A stretch of DNA of 47,548 bases from a phage: assembly GCA_012145005.1 (NCBI GenBank), contig GCA_012145005.1_3029.1; one strand, 5' to 3'. Shown one piece after another: positions 4,034 to 25,541 of the stretch (position 1 is the stretch's first letter; every line of letters starts with the position of its first letter). The notes beneath the pieces were generated by a model that saw nothing but the letters and a program-made list of their open reading frames with translations, was not told the origin of the DNA and ran no database searches. The translations under genes and the position numbers were made by a program.

Positions 4034-4359
4034 TGACAGACACGCAGCTTTTCGAATATCTTTATTTTTCGCCAAAAACTATTAAAAATAAATTGGTGAA
4101 TCATTTTGAAATTTTGGCAAATAATAACATTTTGAGCGAATTTTATCCCAAGCAATACAAATTACAAAAAGGCGTATTCAAAGGATGCAGAGTTTTGTGC
4201 ACTGCTCCTAACGCGCAGTTAATGAATAAAATTCCATATTTTACCATGGAATTTATTGATGGACCTTTTAAAGGACTAATCACCCAAAGTTTAATGGCAT
4301 ATGATTCTGAGCCATTTTTAATTAAAGAACAATCTTGGATAAATTTATTTTCTAATTGA
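4030..4359 (+). CDS. hypothetical protein
   Basis: ORF track 3979..4359 trimmed to ATG 4030, overlapping stop of previous gene. Confidence 0.45.
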   Translation: MMTDTQLFEYLYFSPKTIKNKLVNHFEILANNNILSEFYPKQYKLQKGVFKGCRVLCTAPNAQLMNKIPYFTMEFIDGPFKGLITQSLMAYDSEPFLIKEQSWINLFSN

Positions 4360-4365
4360 GGTTAT

Positions 4366-4728
4366 ATGAAAGCATATCAAATTCTTGAAGGCACGCATAA
4401 AGGTACTATTTATTTTGAAGATGGTATTCAAGCACGAATTATTGTCTCTAAAACCTTTAAAGAGGACTCTTTTGTAGACCCGGAAATTTTCTACGGTTTG
4501 CATGCCCGTGAAATTGAAATTGAACCACAGCCTACGGTTAAAATTGAAGGTGGTCAACACCTGAATGTTAACGTTCTGCGTCGTGAAACTCTGGAAGATG
4601 CAGTTAAGCATCCGGAAAAATATCCGCAGCTGACCATCCGTGTATCAGGTTATGCAGTTCGCTTTAACTCTCTGACTCCGGAACAGCAGCGCGACGTTAT
4701 CGCTCGTACCTTCACCGAGAGTTTGTAA
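4366..4728 (+). CDS. autonomous glycyl radical cofactor (GrcA/YfiD-like; T4 Y06I-like)
   Basis: C-terminal [25 protein letters not shown] glycyl-radical motif; C-terminal half as recalled is near-identical to E. coli GrcA and uses E. coli-like codons. Confidence 0.88.
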
Positions 4729-4949
4729 TGGCAAAGATAATTATTGAAGGTTCTAAAGATGTGCTAAATGCTTTCGCCGAGTGGTTTAGTAATTCAGGCG
4801 AACAGCAATTTAATGAAGCCTGGAATATGGGTGATATTGATGGAATTTATCCTACGACAGAAATTTCTGTTCAAGGATATGGCATTCATGAACCTATTCG
4901 TTTAGTTGAATATGATTTATGCACTGGTGAGGAAGTCAAATATGATTGA
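4728..4949 (+). CDS. hypothetical protein
   Basis: ORF track; coupled starts/stops. Confidence 0.45.
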   Translation: MAKIIIEGSKDVLNAFAEWFSNSGEQQFNEAWNMGDIDGIYPTTEISVQGYGIHEPIRLVEYDLCTGEEVKYD

Positions 4950-6894: not shown

Positions 6895-7358
6895 TTGTAA
6901 AATATATCAAGGGCGATATTGTCGCCCTTTTCGCTGAAGGTAAAAATATTGCGCATGGATGCAATTGTTTTCATACTATGGGTTCAGGCGTAGCGGGTCA
7001 ATTAACCAAAGCTTTCCCTAAAATTTTGGAAGCTGATAAATTACAGACTGAATGGGGTGATGTAACTAAACTCGGTTCTTACTCAGTCTATGAAAAATAC
7101 TTTAGGACTCATAAAGCGTATTGCTTCAACCTTTATACTCAATTTCAACCAGGGCCAAATTTTGAGTATTCCGCTTTAATGAATTGTATGTTAGAATTAA
7201 ATGAGTTTGGTGAAAATAAACTGATTAAACCTACAATCTATATGCCTAGGATTGGTGCAGGCATAGGTAAAGGAAACTGGGATATTATTGAGGGGATTTT
7301 AGATACATATTCCTCTAAATTAGAAATTGTGATTGTTGATTGGGAACCGTTATTATGA
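6891..7358 (+). CDS. macro domain protein (ADP-ribose binding/hydrolase fold)
   Basis: GCNCFHTMGSGVAG and IGAGIGKG glycine-rich macro-domain motifs. Confidence 0.65.
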   Translation: MIVKYIKGDIVALFAEGKNIAHGCNCFHTMGSGVAGQLTKAFPKILEADKLQTEWGDVTKLGSYSVYEKYFRTHKAYCFNLYTQFQPGPNFEYSALMNCMLELNEFGENKLIKPTIYMPRIGAGIGKGNWDIIEGILDTYSSKLEIVIVDWEPLL

Positions 7359-7940: not shown

Positions 7941-8122
7941 GTTTAAGCAAAGAACAAAAAGACAAACTCTTTTCTCTTATCCACGAAGTTATGGATAAAA
8001 ACAGTGAATTGGAAAAAGTTTGTGATGAATGCGGTCCTTTTAATGCAAATGAATACGAAGAACTTTCTAAAGAATTCGATAATAAAGAACAAGAACTCAT
8101 TGATTATATAAATTCTTTATGA
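7937..8122 (+). CDS. small acidic helical protein
   Basis: ORF track; resembles next ORF (xxEQKxxLFxL...). Confidence 0.4.
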   Translation: MSLSKEQKDKLFSLIHEVMDKNSELEKVCDECGPFNANEYEELSKEFDNKEQELIDYINSL

Positions 8123-8307
8123 TTACTCGCGAACAAAAGAACGAAATATTATTTTTAGTTGGTGAAATTATTAGTTTAGAAAAGGATTTGTCTTTTGAAT
8201 TATCTTCTGATTATGGAGATGCCGAAACATATTACGAATTAGTAAAATCTATCGATAAAGCTGAAAATGATTTAGAAACATATTTAGAAAATTTAACTAA
8301 GGACTAA
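8119..8307 (+). CDS. small acidic helical protein, paralog of previous
   Basis: ORF track; MITREQKNEILFLVGEI. Confidence 0.4.
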   Translation: MITREQKNEILFLVGEIISLEKDLSFELSSDYGDAETYYELVKSIDKAENDLETYLENLTKD

Positions 8308-8308
8308 A

Positions 8309-8890
8309 ATGGCGAGTTTAATTTTTACTTATGCAGCAATGAATGCTGGAAAATCTGCTTCTCTTTTAACTGCTGCACATAATTATAAAGAACGCGGAAT
8401 GAGTGTATTAGTTCTTAAGCCTGCTATTGATACTCGCGATTCTGTCTGTGAAGTTGTTTCTCGCATTGGAATTAAACAGGAAGCGAATATTATTACAGAT
8501 GATATGGATATTTTCGAGTTCTATAAATGGGCTGAAGCACAAAAAGATATTCATTGCGTATTTGTAGATGAAGCCCAATTTTTAAAAACTGAACAAGTAC
8601 ATCAATTGAGCCGAATTGTTGATACATATAATGTTCCTGTTATGGCTTATGGATTAAGGACTGATTTCGCTGGAAAATTGTTTGAAGGTTCTAAAGAACT
8701 TTTAGCGATTGCAGATAAACTTATTGAACTAAAGGCAGTTTGTCATTGTGGTAAAAAAGCGATTATGACAGCTCGATTAATGGAAGATGGAACACCAGTT
8801 AAAGAAGGTAATCAAATCTGTATTGGTGATGAAATTTATGTTTCTTTGTGTAGAAAACATTGGAATGAATTAACTAAAAAGCTCGGTTAG
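8309..8890 (+). CDS. tk: thymidine kinase
   Basis: 193 aa; P-loop AMNAGKSASLL; C-terminal CHCGKKA zinc motif; matches T4 Tk. Confidence 0.93.
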   Translation: MASLIFTYAAMNAGKSASLLTAAHNYKERGMSVLVLKPAIDTRDSVCEVVSRIGIKQEANIITDDMDIFEFYKWAEAQKDIHCVFVDEAQFLKTEQVHQLSRIVDTYNVPVMAYGLRTDFAGKLFEGSKELLAIADKLIELKAVCHCGKKAIMTARLMEDGTPVKEGNQICIGDEIYVSLCRKHWNELTKKLG

Positions 8891-13413: not shown

Positions 13414-13435
13414 TTTAAAATGACGTCACAAAGTT

Positions 13436-13465
13436 GTTTACTTCTGCCGCAAAGCATATTATAAT
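13436..13465 (+). promoter_or_regulatory. T4-type early promoter
   Basis: GTTTAC, 17 bp, TATAAT. Confidence 0.65.
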
Positions 13466-13511
13466 ATATGTGTAGTTAATTAATTGCTCTTTAAAAATTG
13501 AGGAGAATACA

Positions 13512-13997
13512 ATGCATATTTTAATGCAATGCCTTGGCAACAAAATTAATGATTTTAATCATAAGCGTGTTAATGATTACATTAAAGACAAACTTGAGAT
13601 TAAAGACACACTTTTTAGAGGACTTACAATAGAGGAAGTGCTATCTTATAAGTTTGAAGTTAATAGGAGAATCAAATTTAAAAGAATAACTTCCTTTAGC
13701 AGTGAGTCTCATATAGCTGAAACGTTTGCGGCAGAACGCTATATGACTAATGTTTTAGTAGTATTAAAAAATGCAAACGTTTTCGACTATTCGACTGCTA
13801 TGATTGACATTTTAGAAAATTTAATCGCAATTGAAGAATCTGGTCAAACTGACGATGATAAGCTTAACAAGCTTTATGATAACCTTTGTATGGTAGATTA
13901 TGAAAGAGAGTTTTTACTGCCAATTAATTCTGAGTTAATAGTTAAAAACATATATTTTGATAGCAAAAAGAACATGCATATAGTAGAAATGGAATAA
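13512..13997 (+). CDS. putative mono-ADP-ribosyltransferase (R-S-E class, C3/ModB-like minimal domain)
   Basis: LFRG (Arg36), TSFSS (STS-like, 60-64), YEREFLLPINSELIV (ExE 131-133 in an ARTT-loop-like context) in canonical order and spacing. Confidence 0.5.
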   Translation: MHILMQCLGNKINDFNHKRVNDYIKDKLEIKDTLFRGLTIEEVLSYKFEVNRRIKFKRITSFSSESHIAETFAAERYMTNVLVVLKNANVFDYSTAMIDILENLIAIEESGQTDDDKLNKLYDNLCMVDYEREFLLPINSELIVKNIYFDSKKNMHIVEME

Positions 13998-14005
13998 ATC
14001 GACAC

Positions 14006-14034
14006 AAAGGGGCCCTAGAGGTCCCCTTTTTATT
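14006..14034 (+). terminator. stem-loop with T-tract
   Basis: AAAGGGG...CCCCTTTT followed by TATTT. Confidence 0.6.
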
Positions 14035-14042
14035 TCAAAAAT

Positions 14043-14065
14043 TTTTTCACAAAACGGTTTACAAG
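14043..14065 (+). repeat. 23-nt promoter-cassette segment repeated at 40319-40341
   Basis: TTTTTCACAAAACGGTTTACAAG identical at both sites. Confidence 0.7.
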
Positions 14066-14086
14066 CATAAAGCTTTATGGTACTAT
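14057..14086 (+). promoter_or_regulatory. T4-type early promoter
   Basis: GTTTAC, 17 bp, TACTAT; shares segments with promoters at 15499 and 40333. Confidence 0.65.
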
Positions 14087-14101
14087 ACAACTATCAACTA
14101 C
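14078..14101 (+). repeat. 24-nt promoter-cassette segment repeated at 15520-15543
   Basis: TGGTACTATACAACTATCAACTAC identical at both sites. Confidence 0.7.
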
Positions 14102-14123
14102 TGATACGGATTTGGAGAATAAA

Positions 14124-15092
14124 ATGAAAACTGTAACTATCAATAAGGGTATCTACTTCGGTAAAGAAATCTCTGGAACTTTTGAGCTCTTAGGCGAATG
14201 GTTCCCAGATAATGCTCCGGTAGATGCACAAGGAGATGGTAAAGTTTTTGTTGAAATTGACGGTAAACGTCGCGGTGTTTGGGTTTACAAATCAGATATT
14301 TCATATGATGGTGTAAAAGTTGAAGAAGTTAAAGAATCATATGAAGATATGAAAACCCGCATTAATAAAAGATTTAATGTTATGGGAATGATGACGAATG
14401 GTATTATTAATGGAAATATTCGTTCATTAATTATCTCTGGCGCAGCAGGTATTGGTAAAACGTATTCTTTAGATAAAGCTTTAAATAAAGCAAATGATAT
14501 TGGATACATTGAATATAAAAGCATTAATGGTAAAATCTCTGGTATTGGTCTTTATGAGCAGCTTTGGAATAATCGTGAAGAGAATTCTGTCCTTTTGATT
14601 GATGATGTGGATGTTTTCTCTGATATGGACATTCTTAATCTTCTAAAAGCCGCTCTGGACACTGGAGAGACCCGTAAAGTCTGCTGGAGTACTGCGTCTT
14701 CTTACTTAGAAGAAAAAGGCATTGACCGTGAGTTTGAATTTAAAGGAACGATTGTTTTTATCACAAACGTTGACATTGACCGCGAATTAGACCGTGGTAC
14801 TAAACTTGCTCCACATTTACAAGCATTGGTGTCCCGCTCAGTTTATTTGGATTTGGGTGTTCACACTAATGAAGAAATTATGGTCAGGGTTGAAGATGTT
14901 ATTCTTTCAACCGACATGATGCAAAAGCGCGGTCTTTCTGATGAAGAAACTTATAAAGCATTATCATGGATGAAAGTTAATGTTAATCGTTTACGCAATG
15001 TTTCACTGCGTACTGCTCTTTATCTTGCTGACTTTATTATGACCGACAAAAACGGTTGGGAAGAAATTGCTGAGGTTACTCTTCTAAAATAA
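14124..15092 (+). CDS. AAA+ ATPase-like protein
   Basis: Walker A ISGAAGIGKT, Walker B VLLIDDVD, sensor-1-like IVFITN; about 100-aa N-terminal domain. Confidence 0.55.
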   Translation: MKTVTINKGIYFGKEISGTFELLGEWFPDNAPVDAQGDGKVFVEIDGKRRGVWVYKSDISYDGVKVEEVKESYEDMKTRINKRFNVMGMMTNGIINGNIRSLIISGAAGIGKTYSLDKALNKANDIGYIEYKSINGKISGIGLYEQLWNNREENSVLLIDDVDVFSDMDILNLLKAALDTGETRKVCWSTASSYLEEKGIDREFEFKGTIVFITNVDIDRELDRGTKLAPHLQALVSRSVYLDLGVHTNEEIMVRVEDVILSTDMMQKRGLSDEETYKALSWMKVNVNRLRNVSLRTALYLADFIMTDKNGWEEIAEVTLLK

Positions 15093-15193
15093 TTCATAAG
15101 AGGACTTCTATGACAAAAAGGCAGTTCAGAAATAGATTATATGGACTGCCATCAAAAAGATGACTAGAATTAAACTGGTAAATGGAGGTAGTG

Positions 15194-15496
15194 ATGTTAT
15201 ACTCAAAGGCTCGTGAAATTTACGAAACTAAAATTAAAGAAGCTGTATTTCAATTCGCAACGACAATGCGATGGACAAATGATTGGGAGTATTCAAAAAA
15301 TCATAAGAAGCCCCTGGTGACAAGAAAGGCTCATATGTTAGTGTTAATAGACCGTGAGCAGATTAAAGCCCGAGAAGCCCTCCAGAATCATAAAAAGGCT
15401 GCCTTTGAATGGTTTATGGATAACACTGCTCCTGAGACTAAGAAAGTAGTGAGCGCTTGGTTCAGTGGAAAAAATTGTGAAAGAAGTTTCTTTTAG
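15194..15496 (+). CDS. hypothetical basic protein
   Basis: ORF track trimmed to ATG 15194 after GGAGG. Confidence 0.4.
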   Translation: MLYSKAREIYETKIKEAVFQFATTMRWTNDWEYSKNHKKPLVTRKAHMLVLIDREQIKAREALQNHKKAAFEWFMDNTAPETKKVVSAWFSGKNCERSFF

Positions 15497-22786: not shown

Positions 22787-23260
22787 ATGTTATTGACTGG
22801 CAAATTATATAAAGAAGAAAAACAGAAATTTTATGATGCACAAAACGGTAAATGCTTAATTTGCCAACGAGAACTAAATCCTGACGTTCAAGCTAATCAC
22901 CTCGACCATGACCATGAATTAAATGGACCAAAAGCAGGAAAAGTACGTGGATTGCTTTGTAATCTCTGCAATGCCGCAGAAGGTCAAATGAAGCACAAAT
23001 TTAATCGTTCTGGCTTAAAGGGTCAAGGTGTTGATTATCTTGAATGGTTAGAAAATTTACTTACTTATTTAAAATCCGATTACACCCAAAATAATATTCA
23101 CCCTAACTTTGTTGGAGATAAATCAAAGGAATTTTCTCGTTTAGGAAAAGAGGAAATGATGGCTGAGATGCTTCAAAGAGGATTTGAATATAATGAATCT
23201 GACACTAAAACACAATTAATAGCTTCATTTAAGAAGCAGCTTAGAAAGAGTTTAAAATGA
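22787..23260 (+). CDS. 49: endonuclease VII (Holliday junction resolvase)
   Basis: 157 aa; MLLTGKLYKEEKQKFYDAQNGKCLICQRELN matches T4 gp49. Confidence 0.92.
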   Translation: MLLTGKLYKEEKQKFYDAQNGKCLICQRELNPDVQANHLDHDHELNGPKAGKVRGLLCNLCNAAEGQMKHKFNRSGLKGQGVDYLEWLENLLTYLKSDYTQNNIHPNFVGDKSKEFSRLGKEEMMAEMLQRGFEYNESDTKTQLIASFKKQLRKSLK

Positions 23261-25074
23261 CAATTGAAAAAGAAATTGAAGGATTGATTCATAAAACTAA
23301 TAAAGACCTTTTAAACGAGAATGCTAATAAAGATTCTCGTGTTTTTCCAACTCAACGGGACCTTATGGCTGGTATTGTGTCTAAACACATTGCCAAAAAT
23401 ATGGTCCCGTCTTTTATTATGAAAGCGCATGAAAGCGGAATTATCCATTTCCATGATATTGATTATTCCCCTGCTCTTCCATTTACTAATTGCTGTTTAG
23501 TAGATTTAAAAGGAATGCTTGAGAACGGATTTAAGCTTGGTAATGCACAGATTGAAACTCCTAAATCAATTGGAGTTGCTACTGCAATTATGGCACAAAT
23601 TACTGCACAGGTTGCTTCCCATCAATATGGCGGAACGACTTTTGCGAATGTAGATAAAGTACTTTCTCCTTATGTTAAACGCACCTATGCAAAACATATT
23701 GAGGATGCAGAAAAATGGCAAATCGCTGATGCGTTGAATTATGCTCAATCTAAAACAGAAAAAGATGTATACGATGCATTCCAAGCTTATGAATATGAAG
23801 TAAATACTCTCTTTAGTTCAAACGGACAAACGCCTTTTGTAACAATTACATTTGGTACGGGAACTGACTGGACTGAACGAATGATTCAGAAAGCAATTCT
23901 GAAAAATCGTATTAAAGGTCTTGGTCGTGATGGGATAACTCCTATTTTCCCTAAGCTTGTTATGTTCGTTGAAGAAGGTGTTAATCTTTATAAAGACGAT
24001 CCGAACTATGATATTAAACAGCTTGCTCTAGAGTGTGCAAGCAAAAGGATGTATCCTGATATTATTTCAGCTAAGAACAATAAAGCTATCACTGGTTCAT
24101 CTGTTCCTGTTTCTCCAATGGGTTGCCGTAGTTTCTTGAGCGTATGGAAAGATTCGACTGGTAATGAAATTCTTGATGGACGTAATAATCTTGGTGTTGT
24201 AACACTGAATCTTCCTCGCATCGCGTTAGATTCTTATATTGGAACACAGTTCAATGAACAGAAATTTGTTGAATTATTCAATGAACGAATGGATCTGTGT
24301 TTTGAAGCTTTGATGTGTAGAATTAGTTCCTTAAAAGGAGTTAAAGCGACTGTTGCTCCTATTCTTTACCAAGAAGGTGCATTCGGGGTTCGTCTTAAAC
24401 CTGATGACGACATAATTGAGTTATTTAAAAACGGTAGAAGTTCAGTGTCTTTAGGATACATTGGTATTCATGAATTGAATATTCTTGTCGGTCGTGACAT
24501 TGGACAAGAAATTTTAACTAAAATGAATGCTCGTCTTAAACAGTGGGCTGAAAGAACTGGGTTTGCTTTTAGTTTGTATTCGACTCCTGCTGAAAACCTT
24601 TGTTATCGCTTCTGTAAACTTGATACAGAAAAATATGGAAGTGTAAAAGATGTTACCGATAAAGGATGGTACACTAACAGTTTCCATGTTTCAGTAGAAG
24701 AAAATATTACTCCGTTTGAAAAGATTTCTCGTGAAGCGCCATATCATTTCATTGCGACAGGTGGTCACATTTCTTATGTTGAACTTCCTGATATGAAAAA
24801 TAACTTAAAAGGTCTTGAGGCCGTGTGGGATTATGCTGCACAACATTTAGATTATTTTGGTGTTAATATGCCAGTAGATAAATGTTTTACGTGTGGAAGT
24901 ACTCATGAAATGACTCCTACTGAAAACGGATTTGTTTGTTCTATTTGTGGAGAAACTGATCCTAAAAAGATGAATACCATAAGAAGAACATGTGGTTATT
25001 TGGGAAATCCGAACGAGCGCGGATTTAATCTCGGTAAAAATAAAGAAATCATGCATAGGGTTAAACACCAATGA
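23257..25074 (+). CDS. nrdD: anaerobic ribonucleoside-triphosphate reductase
   Basis: 605 aa continuous ORF; C-terminal RRTCGYLGNP glycyl-radical motif; no intron interruption. Confidence 0.93.
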   Translation: MTIEKEIEGLIHKTNKDLLNENANKDSRVFPTQRDLMAGIVSKHIAKNMVPSFIMKAHESGIIHFHDIDYSPALPFTNCCLVDLKGMLENGFKLGNAQIETPKSIGVATAIMAQITAQVASHQYGGTTFANVDKVLSPYVKRTYAKHIEDAEKWQIADALNYAQSKTEKDVYDAFQAYEYEVNTLFSSNGQTPFVTITFGTGTDWTERMIQKAILKNRIKGLGRDGITPIFPKLVMFVEEGVNLYKDDPNYDIKQLALECASKRMYPDIISAKNNKAITGSSVPVSPMGCRSFLSVWKDSTGNEILDGRNNLGVVTLNLPRIALDSYIGTQFNEQKFVELFNERMDLCFEALMCRISSLKGVKATVAPILYQEGAFGVRLKPDDDIIELFKNGRSSVSLGYIGIHELNILVGRDIGQEILTKMNARLKQWAERTGFAFSLYSTPAENLCYRFCKLDTEKYGSVKDVTDKGWYTNSFHVSVEENITPFEKISREAPYHFIATGGHISYVELPDMKNNLKGLEAVWDYAAQHLDYFGVNMPVDKCFTCGSTHEMTPTENGFVCSICGETDPKKMNTIRRTCGYLGNPNERGFNLGKNKEIMHRVKHQ

Positions 25075-25541
25075 ATTATGATAGATTTTATCCTTGCGAT
25101 TTTGTGAATGGCCCTGGTTGCAGGGTCGTTCTTTTCGTTACAGGTTGTTTGCATAAATGCGAAGGGTGTTATAATAAATCAACATGGAATGCTAGAAATG
25201 GTATTCCATTCACTGGAGAGACACTAGAGCAATTAATTGAATGTTTGAATAATGATTATATAGAAGGATTGACTATAACCGGAGGTGACCCTCTCTATCC
25301 TGATAACCGAGATGTTATTCATTGCATTGTTCAAACGGTAAAAAATCTTTATCCCAGTAAAAGCATTTGGTTGTGGACAGGATATAAGTTTGAAGATATT
25401 AAACAACTAGAAATGCTTAAATATGTTGATGTTATTATTGATGGGAAGTATGAGAAAAATCTTCCGACTAAAAAGCTGTGGCGAGGATCAGATAATCAGC
25501 GACTTTGGTCAAATACCGATGGGGTGTGGACACATGATTAA
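25071..25541 (+). CDS. nrdG: anaerobic RNR activating enzyme (radical SAM)
   Basis: 156 aa; CLHKCEGC radical-SAM cysteine cluster. Confidence 0.9.
   Translation: MNYDRFYPCDFVNGPGCRVVLFVTGCLHKCEGCYNKSTWNARNGIPFTGETLEQLIECLNNDYIEGLTITGGDPLYPDNRDVIHCIVQTVKNLYPSKSIWLWTGYKFEDIKQLEMLKYVDVIIDGKYEKNLPTKKLWRGSDNQRLWSNTDGVWTHD

Follow-up and report, generated by a model that had tools for sequence, protein, structure and literature searches.

The vs.6 gene (product Y06I) of a 47,548-nucleotide (nt) stretch of phage DNA (contig GCA_012145005.1_3029.1; the whole stretch is referred to below as the window) is a mosaic in which an old phage 5' half is joined to Escherichia coli grcA sequence extending from gene nt 179 to about nt 347. 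According to our best reading, this structure would have arisen by gene conversion from host to phage that was driven by homology, occurred repeatedly, and affected the segment for the structured glycyl-radical domain. We assign a probability of roughly 0.8 to this reading, a figure that covers the whole explanation, i.e., the function of the product as a spare part, the mosaic, and the conversion mechanism. The gene consists of the following parts.

4366–4728, plus strand: coding sequence of vs.6 (Y06I), an autonomous glycyl-radical (GrcA-type) protein; one intact open reading frame (ORF) of 120 amino acids in the ORF list.
4366–4543, plus strand: phage-type 5' half (the head), codons 1–59 and the first base of codon 60, distinguished by its G+C content at third codon positions (GC3) and by 77 of 178 identities to grcA.
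4544–4712, plus strand: host-derived conversion tract, gene nt 179–347, roughly codons 61–116; 168 of 169 positions identical to E. coli grcA.
4713–4728, plus strand: 3' end of phage-type appearance, TTC ACC GAG AGT TTG TAA, with five of the six tail mismatches to E. coli.

The two halves differ markedly in composition. In windows of 90 nt, the G+C content rises from 0.27–0.32 at the 5' end of vs.6 to 0.45–0.50 over positions 4550–4730, and GC3 increases from 0.254 in codons 1–59 to 0.426 in codons 60–120. GC3 is 0.252 in the window's remaining 53 plus-strand ORFs, which served as background for both GC3 and codon choice. The 5' half matches this value, which confirms the phage codon usage ascribed to it in an original prediction made from the sequence alone. 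The value of the 3' half was reached by only 0.34% of 1774 windows of 61 codons elsewhere in the window. CTG, CGT, CGC and CCG account for 14 of the 15 Leu, Arg and Pro codons in the 3' half and for two of seven in the 5' half; their background share is 24.5%, and the excess of the 3' half over background has a binomial p of 3e-8. Codon usage is, thus, not uniform but changes sharply along with composition inside one intact ORF, and the predicted switch to CTG, CGT and CCG was correctly recognized.

This change coincides with an abrupt change in relatedness. Gene nt 179–363 (positions 4544–4728) matched the 3' end of grcA in all 5426 of the 5426 complete E. coli genomes searched, at best with 179 of 185 identical positions (96.8%), and no match to vs.6 upstream of nt 179 was obtained in the same search. 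When aligned directly, the 5' half has 77 of 178 positions (43%) in common with E. coli grcA. The maximum chi-square breakpoint falls after gene nt 178 (4543/4544), separating 77/178 identities from 179/185 (Fisher p = 1.5e-32) and lying within 4 nt of the originally estimated position of about 4540. In a three-way alignment the switch occurs abruptly between ...GTTAAAAT and TGAAGGTGGTCAACACCTGAA.... The sole mismatch to E. coli grcA within positions 4544–4712 is at gene nt 201, so that a tract near-identical even at synonymous sites stands directly beside an anciently diverged head. The tract encodes the beta-strand, the glycyl-radical loop and most of the C-terminal helix, and residues E61–L120 (60 amino acids) are 100% identical to residues 68–127 of E. 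coli GrcA, in line with the earlier impression of an essentially identical C-terminal stretch. For phage T4, 178 of 178 tract positions (nt 179–356) agree with the grcA gene of certain E. coli strains, and 5156 records reach an identity of at least 99%.

The 3' boundary is less uniform. The genes of phages RB16 and KP15, which appear unconverted, end in GAG AGT CTA TAATGGC, the Mosigvirus gene ends alike, and the E. coli sequence beyond the grcA stop codon is unrelated to the vs.5 region except for a few bases. Judging from these alignments, the host-derived tract of the window probably ends near position 4712. The 3' junction varies by lineage, with a host-type GAA retained in T4.

A megablast search of the whole window against the 5426 E. 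coli genomes returned positions 4544–4732 as the only matching region. The best match was grcA and the second was pflB at about 80%; the second half of the window had no match to an E. coli genome at all. The highest GC3 elsewhere in the window, up to 0.44 and thus level with the vs.6 tail, was observed for the ORF at 15182–15496. It gave no megablast match in the E. coli genomes, and it was dropped as a candidate second host-like stretch for lack of matching E. coli DNA.

Identity of this degree might also be expected if the whole gene had been acquired long ago and the 5' half had drifted while the 3' half was frozen by selection. The C-terminal domain is indeed under extreme purifying selection, and the tails of RB16-type phages encode the exact residues of E. 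coli GrcA. We therefore compared the last 60 codons with those of E. coli grcA, counting non-synonymous and synonymous differences separately. The window gene had 0 non-synonymous and 6 synonymous differences, and that of T4 had 0 and 3. The corresponding numbers were 0 and 30 for the three RB16-type tails, 2 and 27 for the two RB43-type tails, and 2 and 24 for Salmonella grcA. With 24–30 synonymous differences accumulating at near-constant protein sequence, protein-level selection leaves the nucleotides free to change, and purifying selection cannot account for the identity of the tract. The match is, thus, one of DNA and not only of protein, as the nucleotide alignment proposed along with the original prediction was meant to reveal. 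In addition, codon usage in the tail is host-like rather than phage-like, and in phages with related heads the tract follows the host species, E. coli or Klebsiella. We consider a tail frozen by protein selection very improbable and rejected it on the synonymous-site controls.

The head of vs.6 points to an older phage gene. It aligns weakly yet recognizably with the N-terminal half of GrcA (EARCIVAK..ED.. on the GrcA side), is identical at 129 of 177 positions to the head of the Klebsiella phage KP01 gene, and begins with MKAYQILEG..., a start also present in Jiaodavirus and Pseudotevenvirus proteins. The head is a diverged GrcA N-terminal half that other genera of T4-like phages also possess. 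In Karamvirus (CC31-like), Pseudotevenvirus (RB16, RB43), Slopekvirus (KP15), Aeromonas phages and one further T4-like contig, the tails are 72–84% identical to any sampled bacterial grcA. These tails display the unconverted state, and the host-identical tract is a derived state of some genera. The event is accordingly best described as replacement of part of a resident homologue by gene conversion and not as the capture of a new module. Of the two possibilities named in the original prediction, recent capture or gene conversion, only the latter is retained. The two KP15-like tails from Klebsiella phages carry the LLDAVEH variant that is also found in Klebsiella and Salmonella grcA. The patterns in the RB16/RB43- and KP15-like tails could reflect older conversions or selection for matching the host at the protein level.

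Near-identity by itself gives no direction, and phages might conversely have donated the 3' half of grcA to E. coli and Klebsiella. In codon usage the tract is of the host type, and its composition, an outlier in the phage, is ordinary in the host. Between bacterial species, both halves of grcA are similarly divergent: head and tail of the E. coli gene have diverged about equally from those of Klebsiella and Salmonella, with synonymous divergence (dS) at 0.6–1.0 in either half. Tail identity to E. coli drops with bacterial relatedness, from 98.9% in Escherichia sp. to 92.8% in Citrobacter amalonaticus and 83.9% in Salmonella. This even divergence and falling identity fit vertical descent in bacteria. 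Furthermore, the tract resides at the grcA locus in 5426/5426 E. coli genomes, next to ung in the strain inspected. Phage-to-host transfer was rejected on codon usage, divergence and relatedness, and we regard it as scarcely credible. The sequence comparisons instead indicate a transfer from host to phage, with bacterial grcA apparently inherited vertically and the phage as recipient. A single mismatch in 169 nt here and the identity of T4 to extant alleles at 178 of 178 positions indicate that the transfer was recent; dating by dS relies on three to eight differences, which are too few for more than a relative ordering.

The mosaic is not restricted to this phage. With E. coli grcA as query, 633 phage records were obtained at 95–99% identity, all of them over query nt 200–384 only, and those whose taxonomy was checked belong to Tequatrovirus or Mosigvirus. 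Head and tract were compared between the two genera using six Tequatrovirus and five Mosigvirus sequences (11 in all). The head (177 nt) contained twelve fixed differences, whereas the tract (169 nt) was free of them (Fisher p = 4e-4); divergence at third positions was 21.6% in the head and 5.0% in the tract, and about 1.9 kb flanking vs.6 are about 80% identical. As the tract is uniform while head and flanks have diverged, the tract is either younger than the split of the genera or has been kept uniform.

A second donor is indicated by Jiaodavirus, a genus of Klebsiella phages. Here, a phage-type head with a G+C content of 0.35–0.37 is joined to a tail of 0.56–0.57 at the same codon, the tract differs from Klebsiella pneumoniae grcA at only 3 of 163 nt in KPV15 and 8 of 163 nt in KP01, and the final ~18 nt are again of phage type. 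The K. pneumoniae grcA query, taken from CP125156.1 (a PLSDB record), matched 106 phage records at 95–99% and 28 at 90–95%, again in the tail only, and the records whose taxonomy was checked were Jiaodavirus. The mosaic therefore recurs, with another host species as donor and an unchanged 5' junction. Conversion may be adaptive or neutral; the GrcA tails of E. coli and Klebsiella differ in only three residues. Conversion in this genome, as originally proposed, is thus upheld, but it is not a private event of this genome, since other genera and a Klebsiella donor are involved.

This recurrence also bears on a trivial explanation, contamination with host DNA or a chimeric assembly. Host DNA does occur in phage lysates. 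Matches restricted to the 3' half and starting at the same point were, however, present in more than 630 (E. coli grcA) and more than 130 (K. pneumoniae grcA) independently sequenced records. The junction was confirmed by alignment in 13 of these records, the T4 reference AF158101 belongs to the set, and the reading frame is intact and runs into a phage-type 3' end overlapping vs.5. Given how often the junction recurs, an assembly artefact was excluded, and we consider its likelihood negligible.

Three observations concern the records themselves. CP125156.1 is a 5.37-Mb K. pneumoniae replicon filed as 'plasmid unnamed2', yet it carries ung and grcA and is evidently the chromosome; several chromosome-sized E. 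coli records are likewise filed as plasmids in PLSDB. In KPV15, a single nucleotide is missing from a run of T in the 5' half of the vs.6 homologue (1501–1862), so that only an ORF of 80 amino acids is left for the glycyl-radical part; this is either a pseudogene or the result of a homopolymer sequencing error. The E. coli-type tract was also assigned, by a direct grcA match or by T4-like matching, to Tequatrovirus- and Mosigvirus-like phages not named after Escherichia, namely the Yersinia-named phages PST, PYps14T, PYps32T and ZN18, the Serratia phage PhiZZ30, the Salmonella phages pSe_SNUABM_01, SG1 and Jbel, and the Proteus phage Isf-Pm2. The tract may report the usual host of a lineage better than the isolation strain does.

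Instead of repeated conversion, a single capture per host species, one in an E. coli phage and one in a Klebsiella phage, might have been followed by spread from phage to phage among co-infecting T-even phages. T-even phages that infect a cell together recombine freely with one another. All Tequatrovirus and Mosigvirus sequences compared share one position of the 5' junction, and 633 of 633 grcA matches begin at the same point of the gene. Three differences from the E. coli reference, 282C, 354G and 357T, are also common to both genera. Site 282 is A in the window and in L007 and C in the other nine phage sequences compared; in E. coli, it is A in the reference strain used and C in the strains matching T4 at 100%. 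282C is, thus, itself an E. coli allele and does not argue for common ancestry of the phages. As they also occur in RB16 and KP15, 354G and 357T appear to be ancestral states of the phage 3' end. Moreover, a single capture is at odds with the three different 3' junction patterns among the Tequatroviruses (the window, T4 and L007), and the zero divergence of the T4 tract from an extant host allele is more easily explained by recent or repeated refreshment. We therefore consider capture once per host with subsequent spread unlikely.

Under repeated conversion, the process could operate as follows. Constraint on the domain would keep phage and host DNA roughly 75–84% identical, which would allow the phage recombination machinery to occasionally use fragments of the host chromosome as donor in homeologous recombination. 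Crossovers would fall at the two limits of homology, its beginning at codon 61 (GAAGGNGGTCA) and its end in the last ~15 nt, which overlap the start of vs.5. Once converted, about 170 nt of near-perfect homology would make a repeat conversion in later infections easy; classical marker rescue in T4 provides a model for this step. The tract would then stay equal to the grcA allele of the current host, E. coli for Tequatrovirus and Mosigvirus and Klebsiella for Jiaodavirus. In its strongest form, this implies that strictly lytic T-even phages keep replacing the 3' half, as a 'live' segment, by the grcA allele present in their current host, a proposition to which we give about even odds. The pattern that bears on continuing exchange consists of 0 versus 12 fixed differences, the presence of both alleles at site 282 and the varied 3' junctions, in a small sample and with low grcA diversity.

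At the DNA level, vs.6 of the window is 100% identical to its counterpart in Escherichia phage JLBYU22 (Tequatrovirus sf22), which is annotated as 'putative autonomous glycyl radical cofactor', and 97% identical to vs.6 of T4. According to the annotation of relatives, the surrounding genes are vs.7, vs.5, vs.4, regB and vs.1, and from these neighbours the ORF at 4366–4728 can be assigned as T4 gene vs.6 with the product Y06I, here of a Tequatrovirus. In Pseudomonas phage PsgM02F, the vs.6 gene is 95.9% identical to that of the window.

The 120-amino-acid product is a small stand-alone protein (~14 kDa class) with a C-terminal Gly_radical domain (Pfam PF01228, residues 61–101, 66.8 bits against a cut-off of 22.2). 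It carries the conserved RVSGY loop in a C-terminal mimic of pyruvate formate-lyase (PFL) residues ~693–759. Residues 22–120 align with the YfiD structure 6OWR (E = 9e-42), and residues 58–120, the last 63, with PFL 697–759 (E = 5e-26). The predicted radical site is encoded by a single codon.

4648–4650, plus strand: GGT codon of Gly95 in RVSGYAV, predicted radical-bearing glycine, from the sequence and alignments to 6OWR and PFL.

With an alignment offset of seven, Gly95 corresponds to Gly102 in E. coli GrcA numbering and aligns with Gly734 of PFL, which is named as the PFL radical site (PMC8683613). By these similarities, the vs.6 product is probably the T4-type version of the 'spare-part' protein GrcA (YfiD). 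In PMC8683613, which cites Wagner et al. (2001), both YfiD and T4 Y06I are described as restoring O2-cleaved PFL after the PFL activating enzyme (PFL-AE) has installed the radical. The same source reports that YfiD residues 61–127 reproduce the fold of PFL residues 693–759, and that residues 1–60 are disordered and aid both binding to cleaved PFL and radical installation. The tract starts with the codon for the counterpart of GrcA residue 68, and what is specific to the phage falls on the disordered half; as judged from this alignment, the converted tract would cover essentially the structured, PFL-mimicking domain. In an infected cell, oxygen would cleave host PFL at the glycine; the small phage protein, with a C-terminal domain mimicking the last ~65 PFL residues including the radical glycine, would dock, PflA would install the radical, and PFL activity would be regained.

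A second glycyl-radical protein is encoded in the window 19 kb downstream of vs.6, together with its activase, as originally noted.

23257–25074, plus strand: nrdD, class III (anaerobic) ribonucleotide reductase; Pfam NRDD 572 bits, Gly_radical 90.5 bits, motif RRTCGYLG.
25071–25541, plus strand: nrdG, radical S-adenosylmethionine (radical-SAM) activase of NrdD; Pfam Fer4_12 163 bits, Radical_SAM 31.4 bits.

PFL produces formate, the reductant of most class III ribonucleotide reductases studied (PMC4390871). The phage might benefit from vs.6 in that PFL would keep acetyl-CoA, ATP and formate flowing, with formate serving NrdD. GrcA-like genes are also widespread outside the T4-like phages, in T5-like contigs of 104–121 kb (L045–L071) and in jumbo phages of 345–357 kb (L028, L030, L031). 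In at least one of the jumbo phages, L030, an nrdD-like ORF immediately precedes the GrcA-like gene, and in L028 and L031 an nrdD-like ORF is found within the locus of the GrcA-like gene, which fits a functional link of the two glycyl-radical systems. No host-identical tract was present among these T5-like contigs and jumbo phages.

Several points weigh against repeated conversion of a spare-part gene. We infer ongoing conversion from identity and the sharing of alleles rather than from a recombination experiment, and with 11 sequences from E. coli phages and a very low diversity of E. coli grcA, repeated events are inseparable from one event per host followed by spread. The A/C difference at site 282 could be a back-mutation. 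Conversion is not universal, as the E. coli phages RB16 and RB43 have unconverted tails, and a Salmonella grcA query gave no phage match above 90% in the collection, i.e., no Salmonella-type tract. Regarding function, the vs.6 protein scores below the curated NCBIfam cut-off for GrcA (TIGR04365, spare_glycyl; 153.3 bits against 170, with 234 for E. coli GrcA). The profile alignment begins only at residue 20, and the low score is due to the divergent N-terminal half. Finally, the benefit of formate supply rests on inference.

Compared to E. coli GrcA (YfiD; PDB 6OWR, TIGR04365), vs.6 likewise encodes a small stand-alone protein, and GrcA residues 68–127, RVSGYAV included, are the same as vs.6 residues 61–120, with the tail DNA identical to the tract of the window at 168 of 169 positions. 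The N-terminal half of the phage protein is seven residues shorter, only weakly similar, and devoid of the ANDDLLNSFWLL segment. Since this half of YfiD aids binding to cleaved PFL, the phage version may bind differently. The genes also differ in location, vs.6 belonging to an early-gene cluster of a lytic phage and E. coli grcA lying next to ung. With T4 Y06I, the gene, the protein and the position between vs.7 and vs.5 all coincide, and comparison of the translations revealed not a single residue that differs. Conservation of the vs.6 ORF in six of six T4-like genomes, along with its match to Gly_radical, has been reported (PMC1524935). The C-terminal glycyl-radical domains of PflB and TdcE have the same fold and motif as vs.6, but PFL itself is a protein of 759 amino acids, and the phage tract is derived from grcA (96.8–100%) and not from pflB (80%).

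The closest parallel is found in the psbA and psbD genes of cyanophages, which have a patchy G+C content and have exchanged segments with the host copies (PMC1484495). Like these, vs.6 is a phage copy of a host metabolic gene, a segment of which was exchanged with the host, and an auxiliary copy that would prop up a damage-prone host enzyme during infection. In contrast to psbA and psbD, the vs.6 tract is a single sharp block of ~170 nt with 99–100% identity and the same 5' junction across genera and donors, the exchange appears to be from host to phage only, and the phages are enterobacterial T-even phages. T4-type phages contain modified cytosine and degrade the host DNA early in infection.

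The immediate surroundings of vs.6 comprise two further elements.

4358–4361, plus strand: GAGG, putative Shine-Dalgarno-like sequence read from the letters, ending 4 nt before the vs.6 ATG.
4728–4949, plus strand: vs.5, downstream of vs.6, its start overlapping the vs.6 stop codon (TAATG); from the ORF list and the annotation of relatives.

This arrangement suggests that vs.5 is translationally coupled to vs.6. A scan for promoters and terminators around vs.6 gave 13 hits compared to 10.7 in shuffled controls, and thus no excess. T4's own nrdD carries a group I intron. The nrdD of the window is a single uninterrupted ORF of 605 amino acids, and an Rfam scan of the whole window yielded no family at gathering score and no group I intron; the nrdD gene of this phage would be intron-less relative to that of T4. 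Compared to JLBYU22, the closest genome and otherwise 93–99% identical, the window contains stretches without counterpart at about 7031–7352, 7987–8309 and 13420–14114. Positions 14037–14134 resemble a stretch near 40.1 kb of the window (87%). The stretches lacking a counterpart in JLBYU22 probably represent small ORFs of variable occurrence or intergenic repeat elements.

The literature on vs.6 that we found consists of citations of Wagner et al. (2001) and a note from 2006 on its Gly_radical match (PMC1524935). No description of the mosaic at the DNA level was found in the searchable literature, although the main T4 genome literature may mention the nucleotide identity. The gene and its function are, thus, already known, whereas the host-derived tract and its recurrence, both well supported, and the reading at the DNA level are new.

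T4, the standard model of a lytic phage, breaks down the chromosome of its host and has generally been regarded as acquiring hardly any host DNA. The vs.6 tract indicates that phages do exchange DNA with the host chromosome by homologous recombination, and that the result becomes fixed, when a phage gene stays similar enough to its host counterpart, and thereby provides an enterobacterial parallel to cyanophage psbA. The protein itself is a natural chimera of a foreign N-terminal half, the part concerned with binding to cleaved PFL, and a radical domain that exactly matches that of the host. The gene offers a simple system for measuring host-to-phage gene conversion, and the tract might serve to identify, by sequence, which host a T-even isolate has truly had in the recent past. 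If the segment is indeed 'live', the tract would carry within the genome a record of the recent host species and would represent a natural, measurable assay of the flow of DNA from the host to a virulent phage.

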